In this document: positions 3,731 to 9,268 of the stretch, piece after piece
How positions within the stretch are numbered: position 1 is the first letter of the stretch
Layout: each line of letters starts with the position of its first letter
Origin: Candidatus Thorarchaeota archaeon
GTDB lineage: Archaea; Asgardarchaeota; Thorarchaeia; Thorarchaeales; Thorarchaeaceae
Assembly (NCBI GenBank): GCA_048882485.1
Contig: JBHLRP010000009.1
Span: forward strand, 5,129 to 16,017
Length of the DNA: 10,889 bases
Direction: 5' to 3'
Notes under the pieces: generated by a model
The model's database searches: none
What the model was told of the DNA's origin: nothing
The model's input: only the letters and a program-made list of their open reading frames with translations
Position numbers and translations under genes: made by a program

Positions 3731-3745
3731 ATTGAAAGAATCATC

Positions 3746-6469
3746 CTAGCTAAAGGAGCTTTGTTGGAACGCAAAAGCAACAGCTTCCTCTAGTGTCATT
3801 TCACCACCTTTCTCATATTCCCGCTCCCACTCTTCTTCGCCTAGCTGGCTTCGCACTGGATTGATACGTGCTTCTAACTCCTTTGGATTGACTGGTACAA
3901 ACAATACACCGACTGGCTTCGCAGGTAGTCGTGCTGTTCCGAAAAGTCTAGCGGCCCGTTGCAGGTCGCCGCTTTCTTTGGCAACACGCGCTAATCCATC
4001 AAGACACATCAAAATACCGAGCCTGTTCCCCATCTCATTCCAAATGTATAGGCTCTTCTCAAAGGTCCTTTTCGCTCGCTCAATCTCTCCCTGTTGAAGA
4101 ATAACATTAGCATACTCAGTGAGGCCTCGAGCCATGGCCCACCTGTCACCCGAGTCATGAATCAGAGTGATACTCTCTTCGATGAATGACTTGGCTCTGT
4201 CAAGATTTCCATCAAGCATCGCAATCACACCCATATGATTCAGCGCCGCCCCCCATCCCCATATGTCATTTAGTCCTTTGAAGATCTCCAAGCTCTCATT
4301 GAATAATGACATTGCAGCGTTTTCATCACCAGAATGCACAAAAATAATGTCCCCCAGCCAGTTCAGAGCGAAGGCCTTTCCCCAGATATCTTCGACCTCT
4401 GTCATGAGCGACACAGCTTCCTTCGCGTAACTATGTGCTCTATCATAATCGCCTATATTCGCAAGACCACCAGCTAGGATGACTTGAGCATGGGCTTGAT
4501 GCCACTTCATATCATTTTCCTTGGATATCGATGCGCTCTTTTCTAGCAGGGAGTTTGAGGTTTCATAATCACCTTGTCCCCACGCAAGTCCTCCGGCAGT
4601 ATAGAGGACCTTCGCTCTTATTTCTGGTGCAACTCCGCTCCCCATTTTTTCGAGAAATATCGATGCCCATTTTCGTCCTTCCGTGATGTGACCTCGGAAG
4701 TGCCAAAACCAAGCCAGAGACCCAACAACTCTCATCGCTACAGATTGCTCTACAGATCCCTCAAGAGCCCTCTGAATTACAGCTCTGAAATTATCCAAGT
4801 CGCTAGCAAGAATTGAGAGCTTCATCTCTCGTTTTTGACTAGGAAGAATCAATTCTGCACCTTCGGCCAACCCTAGGAAGTAGTCTGCATGACGATGTTT
4901 TATCATGGATTCCTCGCCGCTCTCAGAGAGTCGCTCGCTGGCGAATTCACGTATTGTTTCAAGCATGTCGAAACGTGCTGCACCCTTTGCGTCTTCCCTA
5001 TAACGTACTAGATTCCTATCAACAAGTCTTTCAAGTGTTTCAAGCGTATCTTCTGCAATCTCTTCTTCTGAATTACAGACTGATTCTGCAGCATCGAGCG
5101 TCCAACCCCCAGTGAAAGCTGCCAATCTTCTGTAGAATTTGGCTTCATGTGATTCAAGCAGGTCATAGCTCCATTTGATAGTGTCCTGCATCGTCTTCTG
5201 TCTCAGAGGCAAATCTCGTGATAGACTCTTCAAAAGTGGGAGTTTTCTTTCTAGACGGTCCAACATTGCAACTGGCGAAAGAAGGCGTATACGAGCTGCA
5301 GCTAGCTCGATGGCCAACGGAAGGCCATCCAAGCGTCTGCATATCTCAGCGATACTCGATGCGTTTTCTCGTGTCAGTTCAAAGCTTGGCCTTACGGACT
5401 GCGCTCGTTCCATGAAGAGTGCAACTGCAGGATATTCCGTAATGCACTCAAATGGTTCATTGCAGTCAGGTTCAGGTACAGGAAGAGGCGGTACTGCAAG
5501 TTCCTTTTCACCCCGTAGATGGAGCGGCATCCTACTTGTGACAAGAACCTTGAGCATTGGACAGCTCTGAAGAAAGTCCGCGACCAAGGGAGCTGCGGAT
5601 ATTACCTGCTCAAAATTGTCCAGAACTAAGAGCATCTGCCTGTCCTTGAGGTTTAACTTGAGGATTTCTGCCATTGGTCTAGTTCCTGCATCCTTAAGTC
5701 CGAGTTCACTTGCGATTACATCATCAACCAGCTCAGGATCAGAAACCGCTGCAAGCTCAACAAAGCAAACACTATCGAAGGACTCCGCCAACATATTTGC
5801 CAATTCGATTGCGAGACGTGACTTGCCACTACCCCCGGGGCCTGTTAGTGTCACAAGACGTGCATCTCCCATGAGCAAGTCAAATGCCCTTGTTGCTTCG
5901 TGTGCTCTTCCTACTATTGGATTAGCTGGAATCGGCACGGGACATTTCACAATTCCAGCTACAGCCTTCTCCCTTTTCGCCTGGCTCATTGCAAACCGTT
6001 CAGAAAGGAGCACAGCAAGGTCTTCGGCTATGAGCGTTTCAAGCTGTTGAGGGGTTGAGAAACTTTTGTAGGACACTCCACCATAATCACGAATCTCGAG
6101 TAGCATCTCCTGCAGACGGGCATCTCGATTAGAAACGGGGCTCTTAACATAGATTAGCTTGGGTTTCTTTTCTGAAAGGTGGTATTCATCCTCTAAACCT
6201 GAAATTTCCTCTCCTGGAGCAATCCATCCATACCTCTCGCCATAGATACCTATGAAGATGTCACTTTGTTCAAGGTAGGCACGATAGAGGTCACGAGCAT
6301 CATGCGGCCGCGCTCCAAGCTCGAACATAACAGGTGCGAGATGCAGCTTGGCTATGGATTTTCGAGCGACCTCACGCTCCTTCAGCATCTCCTTTAGTGT
6401 CGAACTCACAAATACACGCAACTTTCTGTCTGGGGTCCGAATCACATTGTCTATTTCCGCTTGAGCCAT
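3746..6469 (-). CDS. DUF4062 - STAND NTPase (NB-ARC-like) - winged helix - TPR protein (NLR-like)
   Basis: N-terminal RVFVSST..E...ER....SDIFIGIYGERYG...SGLEDEY (DUF4062). Walker A GPGGSGKS, Walker B LLVLDNFE, VTSR sensor, GLPLA motif and RFDMLETIREFA. C-terminal helical TPR-like repeats (e.g. WGKAFALNWLG, WGWGAALNHMG). GGAGGT RBS. Confidence 0.92.
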   Translation of the reverse strand: MAQAEIDNVIRTPDRKLRVFVSSTLKEMLKEREVARKSIAKLHLAPVMFELGARPHDARDLYRAYLEQSDIFIGIYGERYGWIAPGEEISGLEDEYHLSEKKPKLIYVKSPVSNRDARLQEMLLEIRDYGGVSYKSFSTPQQLETLIAEDLAVLLSERFAMSQAKREKAVAGIVKCPVPIPANPIVGRAHEATRAFDLLMGDARLVTLTGPGGSGKSRLAIELANMLAESFDSVCFVELAAVSDPELVDDVIASELGLKDAGTRPMAEILKLNLKDRQMLLVLDNFEQVISAAPLVADFLQSCPMLKVLVTSRMPLHLRGEKELAVPPLPVPEPDCNEPFECITEYPAVALFMERAQSVRPSFELTRENASSIAEICRRLDGLPLAIELAAARIRLLSPVAMLDRLERKLPLLKSLSRDLPLRQKTMQDTIKWSYDLLESHEAKFYRRLAAFTGGWTLDAAESVCNSEEEIAEDTLETLERLVDRNLVRYREDAKGAARFDMLETIREFASERLSESGEESMIKHRHADYFLGLAEGAELILPSQKREMKLSILASDLDNFRAVIQRALEGSVEQSVAMRVVGSLAWFWHFRGHITEGRKWASIFLEKMGSGVAPEIRAKVLYTAGGLAWGQGDYETSNSLLEKSASISKENDMKWHQAHAQVILAGGLANIGDYDRAHSYAKEAVSLMTEVEDIWGKAFALNWLGDIIFVHSGDENAAMSLFNESLEIFKGLNDIWGWGAALNHMGVIAMLDGNLDRAKSFIEESITLIHDSGDRWAMARGLTEYANVILQQGEIERAKRTFEKSLYIWNEMGNRLGILMCLDGLARVAKESGDLQRAARLFGTARLPAKPVGVLFVPVNPKELEARINPVRSQLGEEEWEREYEKGGEMTLEEAVAFAFQQSSFS

Positions 6470-6486
6470 TGGAACCTCCCCGGACT

Positions 6487-6507
6487 ATTAACTATTGTTA
6501 AAATACT
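6487..6507. promoter_or_regulatory. Palindromic element TTAAC-N4-GTTAA, copy 1
   Basis: ATTAACTATTGTTAAAATACT, 18 nt upstream of the STAND start. 19/21 identical to 8085..8105. Confidence 0.5.
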
Positions 6508-6716
6508 TTGATATAAACCTGCTGTTTATTGATATGTCTAGTTTTTCAGCTTGAAATGCAAATTCCACAGGGTGTATCGTCGCATCTCTCATGCCAAGGC
6601 CTGACTGAAGAACACCTAGTTTCAGGAGTGGAACGAGGCAGCATGAGGCCTCTCGTTAAATTGACTGTGAATCTGATAAGGTAGTCACTTTCCAAAACGA
6701 AAATGCTCGTCCATAG

Positions 6717-7109
6717 CTACGACTTGAAGTAGTTTTTCATGGGATCAAAATAGAAGTCCTTCCAGCCCTGCTTGTAATCATATTTCTGGCCCTCCGGAAT
6801 CTCCGTATGGATTAAGACGATTTTCGTACCTTTCTCAACCTCCTCCAGAATGATCTCGACAGTAGAATCAGGACTGCCGGATGGAAAATCAGTTGTACGC
6901 CATTTCTGAATGATCCTCTTGCCTGGTTCCATCTCTATCGTCTTACCTTCAATATAGCCGTCCCATGCTGTGAACTTCCCATTGACCTTAGGTTCGACCT
7001 TTGCCTCACTCCCAGTCATGGCGCTGTGTTTCTTGCTATCTAGCCATGACTCATAAATTTCCATTGGCTTCGCGGAAATAGTTGTTGACATTTTCAGTTC
7101 CTCTGTCAT
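6717..7109 (-). CDS. AHSA1/SRPBCC (Aha1 C-terminal-like START fold) protein
   Basis: IYESWLDS..HS.MTG..A......G.FTAWDGYI.G...E.EPGKRI.Q.WR..DFP....S.V.I.L......T...L.H..IP........GW..FYF.PMK.YF. Likely start ATG7109 after a purine-rich RBS. Confidence 0.92.
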   Translation of the reverse strand: MTEELKMSTTISAKPMEIYESWLDSKKHSAMTGSEAKVEPKVNGKFTAWDGYIEGKTIEMEPGKRIIQKWRTTDFPSGSPDSTVEIILEEVEKGTKIVLIHTEIPEGQKYDYKQGWKDFYFDPMKNYFKS

Positions 7110-7149
7110 TTCCTTGCCTCTCCTCCATTGCACCGCTTTCTTAGAATCA

Positions 7150-7392
7150 TCATAGCTTTTGGATGAATTGCTGCACTTGGTATTCCCACTCCCGAGTTCT
7201 CAGGACTACCTCATTCTCATGGTCATGCTCAATCACCTCGAGTGTGATGTAGCCCAAATCGCTAACAAACTCCATGCAGCATGTTGCTTCAGGATTCCTT
7301 GCAGCTAGTCCAAATCTTCCATCGAACTCAGCCTTCGCTTTTCGGATGATTTCAGCTCTGTCCAGCTTTGTTCGTTTCGACATTACTTTCAT
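7150..7392 (-). CDS. Small conserved hypothetical protein (CC motif; C-terminal TREWEYQV..F)
   Basis: Protein-like C-terminal ~80 aa (KLDRAEII.KA...F...GL......CC.EF....GY.......EV.L.TREWEYQVQQF). The longer ORF call to 7470 runs through an AT-rich TATA region, so the start is probably ATG7392 or ATG7401. Confidence 0.7.
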   Translation of the reverse strand: MKVMSKRTKLDRAEIIRKAKAEFDGRFGLAARNPEATCCMEFVSDLGYITLEVIEHDHENEVVLRTREWEYQVQQFIQKL

Positions 7393-7535
7393 AGTCTTCA
7401 TTATAGTTAATATATCATTATAATATACAGCTTTCCATAGATGAGCTGAAACGTTTGCCTCTAGAGCCAAATGGATTTCTAGCTACCTTTGTGCATGCCA
7501 GATATTGCATGCTTACTTCTGCGGCATCACTTTTT

Positions 7536-8081
7536 CTAACAATTGGTCAGGAATGCTTCGTTTGCAAGATGATAGATTAAGCGAGCAGTTTCAGGATTCC
7601 ATACACCCTTCTTAGTATCAAAGAACTTCTCCATAGCATCAGCAGAAACGACCTGGCCCACTATGAGTGTGTGATTTCCAATAGGAACCATATTCTTCAC
7701 TTTGCACTCAAAGGAGGCGATGGCCTCTTCCACTGAGGTCGCATTCTTGTCTGTTTTCCCAGGTACTGGAGTCAAACCAGCCTTTGTTATCTTGTCTTCA
7801 TACTGTCGGCCGGTATGGGTGCCTGCCCACCACAGCTCACTTAGAGCATTAAGGGGCATTATATTGACAGTGAAAACACCAGCTTCCTTGACTATATTGT
7901 AGCTGGACTTGTTTGGAGAAATCACTATCCCGAATAATGGGGGCCGAACTGAGAGAGGAGTGGCCCATGCAACAGCAATGGCGGCTTTACTGTTATCTCT
8001 TGGATCATTTGCCGTGATTAAATACGTCGGGTGTGGGCCTGATAATGCAATGAAGGCATTCGTGTCACATCTAGATCTCAT
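7536..8081 (-). CDS. Flavin reductase family protein (flavoredoxin / DIM6-NTAB-like, FMN-binding split barrel)
   Basis: P.PTYLIT, VAWATPLS..PPLFGI.I, FTVNI, G..TGR...DK, FECKV......G.H.L.VG.V motifs. Likely start ATG8081; the ORF track starts at 8093. Confidence 0.92.
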   Translation of the reverse strand: MRSRCDTNAFIALSGPHPTYLITANDPRDNSKAAIAVAWATPLSVRPPLFGIVISPNKSSYNIVKEAGVFTVNIMPLNALSELWWAGTHTGRQYEDKITKAGLTPVPGKTDKNATSVEEAIASFECKVKNMVPIGNHTLIVGQVVSADAMEKFFDTKKGVWNPETARLIYHLANEAFLTNC

Positions 8082-8084
8082 AGA

Positions 8085-8105
8085 ATTAACCATTGTTAAT
8101 ATACT
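8085..8105. promoter_or_regulatory. Palindromic element TTAAC-N4-GTTAA, copy 2
   Basis: ATTAACCATTGTTAAT is a 6-bp-arm palindrome, extended by ATACT. It lies immediately upstream of ATG8081 and is a near-duplicate of 6487..6507. Confidence 0.5.
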
Positions 8106-8137: not shown

Positions 8138-9268
8138 TTATTGGTGCCTAGATTCCTCAGCCTTTCTGATACGTTCTCGAAGATCCGCGATTTCCTTATT
8201 CCTCTTATCTAGCTCAGCCTTCTTTCGCTGATTTGTCCTCACATAATCGTCATAGGCATCTGACCACTCTTGTCTGGTTTCACGAAGCTGTCGTTTCAAA
8301 TGCTCGTACATGATTCTCTTGACATGTACCGTGTTCTTTAGATTGAGTAGGGCAGTGTCCAAGTCTGAGGTGACATTCGAGAGTTCAGATTCAGTTCTTT
8401 TCAGCTCGGCACGCAAGTTAAGAATCTCAGTTGGTGATTCCTCGACTAGCCTTTCATCAGTCACAGGTTCATGGACTGATGATACATAATCAGCAACCTC
8501 CATTCTTGCTTCAAATGGACTTGCCGGTTCACTGGCTCCTGCTTCACTTGGCTCAGTAGGTCCTACAGAACTATTATCTGATACGGGCTGAACTGATTCA
8601 GTTTCAGAAGTTACAATACCTGTATCATTCACATCTTCATCTATAGCCGTAGGCCTGTCAAGTCTGAGCTGGACGCGCTCACTTATTACGGGTTTACCAT
8701 CTGCTTCGTCAATCATCATCTCGGTGAGCGACTTGAAGGCTTGGTCAATATTCTCACCAGTCAATGCTGATGTTTCGATGAAGATGGATGGAGTGTTCAT
8801 CTTCTCCCCAAATCTCTTAGTGAATGCTTGGCCCTCTTCGTATGAAACGGTTTCTTCACTTGGGTGACTTGGTCTCAGATCAATCTTGTTGCCTATAATA
8901 ATCAGAGGGGGAAGTTTGCCCATGAATCCATGTGCTTCGACAAGCCATTTCGATGCATTGTCGAATGATTCTCTATTGACTACAGAATATGTCAGCAGGA
9001 GACCGCTGCATCCTTCATAATATCGTCTACGAAGGCCCTGAAAAAGGGGTTGCCCAGCTATGTCCCATATCAACAGGTAGATAGGAGTCTTTCCCATGAC
9101 AAAGGTCTTCTGCGCAAAATCCACTCCCAATGTCGCGATGTAACTTCTCTTGAACACACTACCTAGGAATGAGCGACGTATGCTCGTCTTTCCGACAAAT
9201 CCATCTCCAATCAGGCAGACTTTGAATTGTCGGCGATGTAGTTCAAATGGGATGCAGACTCCCTCCAT
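8138..9268 (-). CDS. Rab-like small GTPase (Ras superfamily) with acidic linker and C-terminal coiled coil
   Basis: G1 GDGFVGKT, G2 YIATLGVDF, G3 WDIAGQ, RabF4-like YYEG, G4 GNKID and G5 ETSA. These are followed by a D/E/S/P-rich linker and ~95 aa of charged heptad-like helix. No C-terminal Cys prenylation motif. Confidence 0.93.
   Translation of the reverse strand: MEGVCIPFELHRRQFKVCLIGDGFVGKTSIRRSFLGSVFKRSYIATLGVDFAQKTFVMGKTPIYLLIWDIAGQPLFQGLRRRYYEGCSGLLLTYSVVNRESFDNASKWLVEAHGFMGKLPPLIIIGNKIDLRPSHPSEETVSYEEGQAFTKRFGEKMNTPSIFIETSALTGENIDQAFKSLTEMMIDEADGKPVISERVQLRLDRPTAIDEDVNDTGIVTSETESVQPVSDNSSVGPTEPSEAGASEPASPFEARMEVADYVSSVHEPVTDERLVEESPTEILNLRAELKRTESELSNVTSDLDTALLNLKNTVHVKRIMYEHLKRQLRETRQEWSDAYDDYVRTNQRKKAELDKRNKEIADLRERIRKAEESRHQ

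Follow-up and report, generated by a model that had tools for sequence, protein, structure and literature searches.

What does an NLR-like gene do in the genome of an Asgard archaeon, and what would set it off? The gene considered here lies in a stretch of 10,889 nucleotides of a Candidatus Thorarchaeota contig (hereafter the window), where it forms a single ORF of 907 amino acids at exactly 3746..6469 on the minus strand, the strand to which the coordinates of all its parts below refer. It begins with ATG, and a Shine-Dalgarno-like GGAGG (6475..6479, minus strand) is situated 6 nt 5′ of this codon. Full-length homologs of its product, P0001, are 40–95% identical to it, the nearest of which (84%, 73% and 52% identity) belong to Candidatus Thorarchaeota; together with an adjoining gene for a Ras-family GTPase, this agrees with the Asgard-type genome named in the preliminary description. 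The tripartite layout of effector, NTPase and sensor proposed there is likewise borne out, both by Pfam modules, which run from a DUF4062 head through an NB-ARC-type STAND NTPase to about eight TPR hairpins, and by an AlphaFold2 model (mean pLDDT 88) with a five-strand β/α head, a STAND core and a TPR solenoid. By its sequence, P0001 is thus a predicted archaeal member of the known NIR(DUF4062)-STAND-TPR class. Since the architecture, enzyme activity and defence role of this class have already been described, P0001 alone adds little, and it is unusual mainly for its promoter, which carries an operator of a host stress-type regulon.

The head suggests what the output might be. Three 2026 preprints have identified DUF4062, also called NIR, as a TIR-like NADase (10.64898/2026.09.04.749371; 10.64898/2026.05.01.722283; 10.64898/2026.06.25.731849). 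Activity has been reported for Swarozyc, PsAvs2, Vulcan, Vesta and TEP1, with loss of function upon mutation of the catalytic glutamate, and five of five assayed NIR domains convert NAD+ to ADPR and nicotinamide. In P0001 the domain consists of five β/α units (residues 18-156, 6002..6418; placed by Pfam, models and VIA) that were modelled with a pLDDT of 84, and its Pfam match to DUF4062 (PF13271) covers residues 18-97 (E 4.2e-20; 72.2 bits against a cut-off of 24.7). This is the only copy of DUF4062 in the genome. Ahead of strand β1 is the motif IRTPD (residues 10-14, 6428..6442), which is nearly invariant in the family and aligns with the D-K-R start of the DUF4062 chain of KpSwz, the Swarozyc protein. 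The acidic E-x-E-Y motif described earlier is present as E-D-E-Y (E93-D94-E95-Y96), and E95 (codon 6185..6187), the predicted catalytic glutamate, is invariant in 50 homologs, as is the motif around it, S-x-L-E-x-E-Y. E95 aligns with position 97 of the solved KpSwz E97A structure (PDB 10wc), an alanine there in place of the glutamate, and this chain matches residues 14-95 of P0001 at E 7e-4; E97 of KpSwz, E108 of PsAvs2 and E1008 of TEP1 are equivalent catalytic glutamates. The relationship to TEP1 that had been drawn before also finds support, as the TEP1 domain of PDB entry 11gz matches the head of P0001 at E 3.5e-4. Judged by these homologous NIR domains, P0001 would be expected to be an NADase itself.

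Fold comparison bears on which substrate the head would use. A TIR/nucleoside deoxyribosyltransferase-like fold had been anticipated, and our VIA search recovered it, with Z scores of 13.5 for the CMP N-glycosidase MilB, 12.2 for the SARM1 TIR domain and 12.1 for a deoxyribosyltransferase (NDT). Further matches included many TIR and ThsB chains, animal TIR adaptors among them, and the spectrum as a whole is the same as that published for the NIR domain of PsAvs2. Foldseek with the head alone placed generic flavodoxin-like folds on top, and it was VIA that resolved MilB, TIR and NDT. With MilB as the best structural match and deoxyribosyltransferases and DNPH1 close behind, the head could be active without being a bulk NADase, either as a nucleotide N-glycosidase (MilB/DNPH1-like; CMP/dNMP-type) or, like the TIR of Thoeris, as a maker of an NAD+-derived signal. 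Pfam's placement of the NIR domain in an N-ribosyltransferase neighbourhood would suit such an activity, as would the first annotation of the Avs2 head by Gao et al. as a CMP hydrolase (as cited in 10.64898/2026.09.04.749371). Nevertheless, the TIR matches fall within approximately 1.5 Z of MilB, the assayed NIR domains uniformly hydrolyse NAD+, and next to the gene there is no conserved gene for a receptor or effector that could act downstream, a point against the making of a messenger; we consider this chemistry improbable.

Behind the head, residues 188-520 (4910..5908) form the STAND NTPase, comprising a nucleotide-binding domain, a helical domain and a winged helix (NB-ARC, Foldseek). The Pfam NB-ARC match (residues 198-397; 34.2 bits against a cut-off of 23.5) scores higher than that to NACHT (20.1 bits, below the cut-off of 26.7). 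The Walker A (GPGGSGKS, residues 210-217, 5819..5842), Walker B (LLVLDNFE, residues 280-287, 5609..5632) and GLPL (residues 382-385, 5315..5326) motifs, said before to be intact, were all verified on the DNA, together with IRTPD and with E95 in L-E-D-E-Y, and an alignment of the 50 full-length homologs shows G210/G213/G215/K216, D284 and G382/P384/L385 to be as invariant as E95. By Foldseek, the best matches of the STAND core are 6mfv (the STAND-TPR protein PH0952), the plant NLRs RPP1, NRC and ZAR1, Apaf-1/CED-4 and AVAST5, a filament chain of the last being found at rank 16; when PDB sequences were searched by phmmer with the NTPase region, no match was significant. The presumed sensor is a TPR solenoid of about eight helical hairpins (residues 521-850, 3920..4909; Pfam and model helices 520-845), with Pfam TPR_12 and TPR_MalT matches across residues 660-846, and it is followed by a C-terminal cap that the model folds as a β-hairpin and three helices (residues 851-907 and stop codon, 3746..3919).

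This NTPase-TPR core and its cap are homologous to those of AfsR, MalT and PH0952 and of the Mycobacterium tuberculosis cyclase-STAND-TPR proteins of the Rv0386/Rv1358/Rv2488c type, a family usually taken as signalling. P0001 differs from these in having the NIR head for its output domain and neither a cyclase nor a DNA-binding domain of the SARP, BTAD or LuxR kind. A Pfam search of P0001 at E ≤ 1 found no GerE/LuxR, other HTH or BTAD family, confirming the absence of a C-terminal LuxR HTH that had been remarked upon, and the cyclase domain PF00211 had no match in the protein. NCBIfam matches to AfsR, HaaT and FxSxx_TPR lie far below their cut-offs and are confined to the TPR/NTPase core. Taken with the 6mfv fold match, the sub-threshold AfsR and HaaT matches, which place the core with the MalT/AfsR/PH0952 type, and the animal TIR adaptors among the fold matches of the head, would be in keeping with a non-catalytic head that serves as an adaptor or oligomerisation module, P0001 then being a scaffold or regulator in the manner of MalT/AfsR-type STAND-TPR proteins and adaptor TIRs. 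We find this very hard to credit, because the catalytic glutamate and its motif are invariant, no part of the protein is better conserved than the head, and P0001 has no DNA-binding or other output domain.

The reading that we favour, and to which we give about an even chance, is that P0001 is an autoinhibited, ATP-dependent NLR-like switch whose output would be NAD+ destruction and whose trigger would most likely come from a virus or mobile element. At rest, the TPR solenoid and an ADP-bound NB-ARC-type module would keep the protein monomeric; a protein ligand, most likely a conserved virus or mobile-element protein, would bind the TPR array and so permit the STAND core to exchange its nucleotide and to oligomerise, and this in turn would cluster the N-terminal NIR domains into an active assembly. 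A predicted complex of two copies of the head alone (residues 8-175) scored 0.12 against a mark of 0.42, which speaks neither for nor against such clustering. Activation by oligomerisation and cleavage of NAD, as put forward in the preliminary description, has since been shown experimentally for a NIR-STAND-TPR protein, PsAvs2 of Pseudomonas chlororaphis, which, once triggered by terminase, defends by depleting NAD+ and arresting growth (Le Mouellic et al., bioRxiv 10.64898/2026.09.04.749371), so the mechanistic reading was right and is no longer new. For P0001 we infer both the activation by oligomerisation and the viral nature of the trigger.

Compared by description, PsAvs2 resembles P0001 in being a single gene for a NIR head with catalytic glutamate, a STAND NTPase and C-terminal TPR-type repeats. 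P0001 differs in that it has no PADLOC Avs match, its NTPase is NB-ARC/MalT-like and its TPRs are of the MalT/AfsR type, and in that it is found in an archaeal host with no defence island. Swarozyc (KpSwz) and Evangelion (Eva01) (10.64898/2026.05.01.722283; 10.64898/2026.06.25.731849) share the homologous DUF4062 head and the NAD+-depleting output and are also single-gene systems, but, unlike P0001, they do without a STAND NTPase and bind the trigger directly through auxiliary helical regions; in KpSwz the trigger is the portal protein. The eukaryotic proteins TEP1, NWD1/2 and NPHP3 have the same order of N-terminal NIR head, STAND NTPase and repeats, yet combine NACHT with WD40 (or NPHP3-type TPR) where P0001 has an NB-ARC-like core. 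As this core differs and the clade is dominated by bacteria, we see no sign of a specific link between Asgard archaea and eukaryotes, and such an ancestry is rejected; the head resembles TEP1 no more closely than it does KpSwz.

Sequence conservation within the family follows the modules, with mean pairwise identity falling from 63% in the head to 48–49% in the NTPase, 31–33% in the TPRs and 24% in the tail, as one would expect if the effector is fixed while the sensor diversifies. Purifying selection acts family-wide, most strongly on the head and most weakly on the sensor. This gradient is among the points that we counted for the favoured switch, along with the domains and motifs, E95, the folds, the literature, the accessory distribution, the tandem paralogs and the stand-alone nature of the gene; against it we counted the missing defence context, the lack of an Avs or bNACHT model, the host-regulon operator and the existence of cyclase-fused relatives.

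Genomic context gives an immune role no support. The neighbours in the window are housekeeping genes, with no defence genes and no significant PADLOC matches among them, and 150 neighbouring ORFs at 17 bacterial homolog loci gave generic PADLOC matches only. No conserved partner gene was found beside the homologs. For P0001 itself, PADLOC 2.0.0 at E ≤ 1 returned no Avs (families 1-5) or bNACHT model, its matches being a generic TPR model and weak P-loop matches to mad8 and SspC.

The distribution of the gene speaks to how it came to be here. It belongs to a very large and overwhelmingly bacterial family of tens of thousands of members, within which the Thorarchaeal copies form two separate nested clades, A and B; a single Thorarchaeal clade is rejected (p-AU 4e-80). 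Horizontal acquisition, suggested from the start of the protein, is supported by this, and if the protein is active, its gene would have reached Asgard archaea from bacteria at least twice, extending NAD+-depleting NLR-like immunity by NIR/DUF4062 to them from bacteria and human TEP1, the only places where it is so far known. A recent transfer is a different matter. We sought such a signal in GC, GC3 and codon usage and found the STAND gene to be host-typical, and, with clade A spanning 52–95% identity within Thorarchaeota and a host operator in the promoter, the transfer is not recent. Nor do the relatives bear out Actinomycetota, one of the two phyla first named, the nearest named bacterial ones in the tree being Calditrichia and Anaerolineae. 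Several bacterial loci carry tandem paralogs, and in other relatives the STAND-TPR core is fused to adenylate/guanylate cyclases; one of these, P0039, has DUF4062 and Guanylate_cyc in tandem ahead of the same NTPase-TPR core.

Presence and absence among close relatives, a check that had been recommended, turned out to be patchy, with the gene in 4 of 201 Asgard genomes and in 2 of 17 genomes of the same genus. In another genome of the genus, G170, the locus is otherwise syntenic and is missing a variable block of approximately 3.8 kb (3735..7510) that holds the STAND gene, an AHSA1/SRPBCC gene (6717-7133) and orf106 (7150-7470). A three-way alignment of the block showed no apparent repeat common to both junctions, and the window has no tRNA, so an integrase or mobile element as its carrier is not supported.

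The promoter brings in a different kind of trigger. The palindromic operator TTAACAATAGTTAA (TTAAC-N4-GTTAA, 6488..6501) overlaps the TATA-like AT tract of the STAND promoter, and a second copy (8086..8099) immediately precedes the flavin reductase gene (7536-8093, minus strand). The window thus has two copies where 0.01 would be expected. The genome holds 12 copies, 11 of which have an ORF start 2–32 bp downstream. The regulon comprises roughly 12 promoters, about 11 of them besides that of the STAND gene; next to flavin reductase they include those of a photolyase, an aldehyde dehydrogenase, a glyoxalase, two SRPBCC/AHSA1 proteins, a thioredoxin-like DUF255 protein and an MFS transporter, Pfam names being all from which the function of the regulon is read. 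A repressor binding TTAAC-N4-GTTAA would hold down expression. As a candidate for this regulator, orf106 had no Pfam match, and Atlas returned only unnamed clusters.

With this operator common to its own promoter and those of redox, detoxification and photolyase genes, the same STAND-gated NADase might answer to a non-viral trigger, the TPRs recognising a metabolite complex or a host protein that is damaged or induced by stress. Under oxidative, electrophile or photo-oxidative stress, P0001 would then lower NAD+ and so impose dormancy or death. The position of the STAND gene directly after the flavin reductase-orf106-AHSA1 unit of the regulon is in line with this, as are the host-like codon usage, the lack of defence context in the window and at the bacterial loci, and the conservation of the operator upstream of orthologs in two genera, including those of genomes G387 and G149, despite differing loci. 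We nonetheless see it as possible but rather unlikely. The NIR proteins tested so far are all antiviral or of unknown role, host regulators can also control defence genes, the Thorarchaeal paralogs of clade B have no operator, a patchy distribution is more what one expects of an accessory immune gene than of a core stress function, and the function of the regulon is read only from Pfam names.

The ortholog of 73% identity retains the operator at another locus, which looks like integration into host physiology. Carried further, a bacterial-type NIR-STAND-TPR gene may have been domesticated into the Thorarchaeial regulon, where it would be repressed together with the redox, detoxification and photolyase genes. 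Its product would then work as a switch that depletes NAD+ under stress, bringing on dormancy or death, and not as a sensor of viruses. We think this doubtful; if true, P0001 would be the first NLR-like NADase of a prokaryote to answer to a physiological trigger and not to an immune one, and it would come from the lineage nearest to eukaryotes. We know of no immune trigger for the eukaryotic NIR-NLRs TEP1 and NWD1. The host-regulon operator offers a testable handle, on the restraint of a potentially lethal enzyme or on a non-viral function. The flavin reductase genes of genomes G170 and G134 also have the operator upstream.

The single long open reading frame at exactly window 3746..6469 (minus strand) starts with ATG, has GGAGG 6 nt upstream and encodes a 907-aa protein in which Pfam identified DUF4062 (residues 18-97; E 4.2e-20; 72.2 bits, cut-off 24.7), NB-ARC (residues 198-397; 34.2 bits, cut-off 23.5; AAA_22 was also found) and TPR_12 plus TPR_MalT (residues 660-846). 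On the DNA, we located IRTPD (residues 10-14), L-E-D-E-Y (residues 92-96), Walker A (GPGGSGKS), Walker B (LLVLDNFE) and GLPL, and across 50 aligned full-length homologs (37-84% identity) the predicted catalytic glutamate E95, the P-loop Gly/Lys residues, D284 and G382/P384/L385 were invariant. With modules, motifs and invariance confirmed, and no helix-turn-helix (HTH) of any kind found by Pfam in the 907 residues, the three-module layout with intact motifs and no LuxR HTH given in the preliminary description is real. Since a DNA-binding domain is absent, identity as a MalT/AfsR/LuxR regulator was rejected; the protein does belong to the NB-ARC-like STAND NTPases. AlphaFold2 modelled the entire protein with confidence (pLDDT 88), giving a five-unit beta/alpha head (residues 18-156), a disordered linker (157-187), the STAND core (188-520) and about eight TPR hairpins (521-850) followed by a small cap. 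Foldseek placed the core with the Pyrococcus STAND-TPR protein PH0952 (6mfv), plant NLRs (RPP1, NRC, ZAR1, Sr35), Apaf-1/CED-4 and the AVAST5 filament.

Modelled alone (pLDDT 84), the head matched MilB CMP N-glycosidase (Z 13.5), SARM1 TIR (12.2) and 2'-deoxyribosyltransferase (12.1), followed by a long run of TIR and ThsB domains, in keeping with the TIR/nucleoside-deoxyribosyltransferase-like fold first proposed for it. The suggested kinship with TEP1 was borne out by a sequence match to the solved DUF4062 structure of the human protein (11gz; E 3.5e-4). Another match was to that of the Swarozyc protein KpSwz (10wc; E 7.4e-4), where E95 aligns with the position carrying Ala in the E97A construct. 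Preprints from 2026 have settled the biochemistry of DUF4062: in TEP1 and in the defence system Swarozyc it acts as a TIR-like NADase (Osinski et al., 10.64898/2026.05.01.722283), and under its new name, NIR, it forms part of a NIR-STAND-TPR Avs2 protein that senses phage terminase, leading to NAD+ depletion (Le Mouellic et al., 10.64898/2026.09.04.749371). Evangelion has also been described (Ibarra-Chavez et al., 10.64898/2026.06.25.731849). In light of this work, the mechanism proposed earlier, ligand-triggered oligomerisation activating a nucleotide- or NAD-cleaving effector, agrees with the one demonstrated in the meantime for the NIR-STAND-TPR architecture. The three preprints do not mention Asgard archaea, and two papers on the Asgard defensome make no mention of DUF4062, Avs or NADases. 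Profile, catalytic glutamate and fold place our protein in PF13271/NIR, with putative NADase activity, and we consider it quite probable that it is a NIR enzyme gated by its STAND module, with NAD+ or a closely related nucleotide as substrate. That the head acts on a different substrate or makes a messenger seems improbable, and that a head with an invariant E95 has a non-catalytic role is more improbable still.

Representative clusters matching the protein number 184,852 at E<=1e-3 and 67,183 at 1e-30, much of this being due to the common STAND-TPR core. Full-length look-alikes of the same architecture run to thousands and belong to Chloroflexota, Actinomycetota, Acidobacteriota, Bacteroidota and Calditrichia. 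At loci L041, L047, L049, L055, L064 and L068, in several genomes of Actinomycetota, Chloroflexota and Bacteroidota, two or three full-length paralogs are arranged in tandem or close together. In some relatives, P0039 among them, a class III cyclase is inserted between head and NTPase, which links the core with the cyclase-STAND-TPR proteins. P0039, P0048, P0049, P0063 and P0074 (~1,100 aa) have DUF4062 together with an adenylate/guanylate cyclase domain of class III ahead of the same NB-ARC-TPR core, so that by domain content a single switch bears two distinct heads that act on nucleotides; our protein itself was rejected as a cyclase-STAND protein by the membership test. It is, by sequence, a new archaeal member of a known architecture with putative function, and it stands out by its Asgard host, by evidence that such genes were acquired twice independently and by a conserved host operator. 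Mean pairwise identity drops along the protein, from 63% in the head through 48-49% in the NTPase and 31-33% in the TPRs to 24% in the tail. This gradient from conserved effector to diverged sensor, the tandem paralogs in bacteria, an accessory, horizontally spread distribution and analogy with PsAvs2, the Avs2 protein of Pseudomonas chlororaphis, and other tested NIR systems make an antiviral trigger the most likely reading, to which we give about even chances.

Distribution among Asgard genomes was patchy: of 17 genomes of the same genus 2 carry the gene, and of 201 Asgard genomes sampled 4 have a full-length homolog. In an unrooted maximum-likelihood tree of 65 rows, Thorarchaeal sequences formed two separate, fully supported clades, both nested among bacterial or unlabelled sequences: clade A (the window, G387, P0003, G149 and P0005, the last clustering at 90% with a protein that bears the name Thorarchaeota) and clade B (G377, two G363 copies and G120). 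Constraining all nine Thorarchaeal rows to one clade cost 376 log-likelihood units (p-AU 4e-80, for a group defined after the tree was seen). The two nested clades and the rejected single clade support at least two inter-domain transfers; as the family is mostly bacterial, the bacteria-to-archaea direction is favoured, although the tree is unrooted. Horizontal acquisition, as first suggested, is thus upheld, but the nearest named relatives of clade A are Calditrichia and Anaerolineae, not the proposed Actinomycetota. The transfer into clade A is old, given the gene's ordinary composition for its genome (GC 76th percentile, GC3 32nd, synonymous-codon score 21st) and the 52-95% identity span of the clade.

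In genome G387 the entire locus is syntenic (89-98% protein identity). G170, a genome of the same genus whose neighbouring genes are 85-93% identical, has ~45 bp between its flavin reductase and DsrE genes and lacks the block at window ~3735-7510 with orf106 and the AHSA1/SRPBCC and STAND genes; neither genome search found the STAND gene elsewhere in this 88% complete assembly. Alignment of window 3735-7510 with positions 8290-8440 of the G170 locus (L036, contig C94) gave a clean 3.8-kb presence/absence difference, the three genes being absent together, with no obvious shared repeat at the junctions; the window contains no tRNA or integrase. In G134, a more distant genome, the flavin reductase has an orf106 homolog as its neighbour, so a loss of the block from G170 is no less likely than its insertion here.

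Neighbours in the window encode an HTH protein, Mrp/NUBPL, DsrE, AHSA1, flavin reductase, a Ras-family GTPase, an RraA-like protein and a ferredoxin-domain protein, none with a meaningful PADLOC match. The GTPase (8138-9268, minus strand; 376 aa) is Ras/Rab-like and has a long coiled coil at its C-terminus; it is kept in G387, G170 and G149 and counts among the typical eukaryotic-signature proteins of Asgard archaea. Among 150 neighbour ORFs at 17 bacterial loci, PADLOC gave only generic matches (kinase-like PD-T4-6, ABC-like AriA, WYL, mad2/3/8), and Pfam identified ordinary metabolic and regulatory genes with no recurrent partner. The STAND gene is stand-alone, its protein matches neither PADLOC-defined Avs families nor bNACHT, and a defence-island signature is absent for the subfamily in the window and these 17 loci, so that this line of evidence did not back the proposed immune role. 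It favours the main rival, in which the same biochemistry serves as a host stress switch, as do the signalling relatives of the STAND-TPR core and an operator with its regulon. Two copies of the palindrome TTAAC-N4-GTTAA are present in the window (0.01 expected), just 5' of the start codons of the STAND gene (6488-6501) and the flavin reductase (8086-8099). The 3.96-Mb genome holds 12 copies, 11 with an ORF start 2-32 bp downstream; those outside the window lie on contigs C13, C15, C18, C25, C26, C39, C43, C61, C63 and C116. Besides the STAND and flavin reductase genes, those below it encode DNA photolyase, aldehyde dehydrogenase, glyoxalase, two further SRPBCC/AHSA1 proteins, a thioredoxin-like DUF255 protein, an MFS transporter and an ATP10-like protein, which by Pfam names alone looks like a redox, detoxification or photo-damage response. 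Conservation of the operator extends to the STAND orthologs of G387 and G149 (the latter 73% identical, from a different genus, its shared flank only a Ras-family GTPase homolog ~5 kb away) and to the flavin reductase genes of G170 and G134, all of which have it upstream; it was not found upstream of clade B genes. Its conservation and downstream genes indicate that the clade A gene is wired into a host regulon, and overlap of its left half with a TATA-like AT tract suggests a putative repressor site. Even so, we judge a host stress switch clearly less probable than an antiviral trigger. Small orf106 (7150-7470, minus strand), paired with the flavin reductase in two genomes, is a candidate regulator.

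Any DUF4062 domain was found in 43 of 400 Asgard genomes. Two such proteins of 1,416-1,487 aa, at loci L130 (G165:C4:17800-23200) and L133 (G324:C96:5700-10900), combine DUF4062, NACHT/NPHP3_N, an APAF1_C helical domain and a double WD40 propeller matching TEP1 beta-propeller Pfam models, with an NWD1-type winged helix in L133 only; in eukaryotes, NWD1/NWD2 and the C-terminal half of TEP1 have their domains in the same order. Others of 1,138-1,379 aa, at L129 (G171:C38), L131 (G077:C21) and L134 (G329:C2), carry DUF4062, a P-loop and TPR repeats matching the Nephrocystin-3 TPR model (above cut-off in L131), a layout resembling NPHP3.
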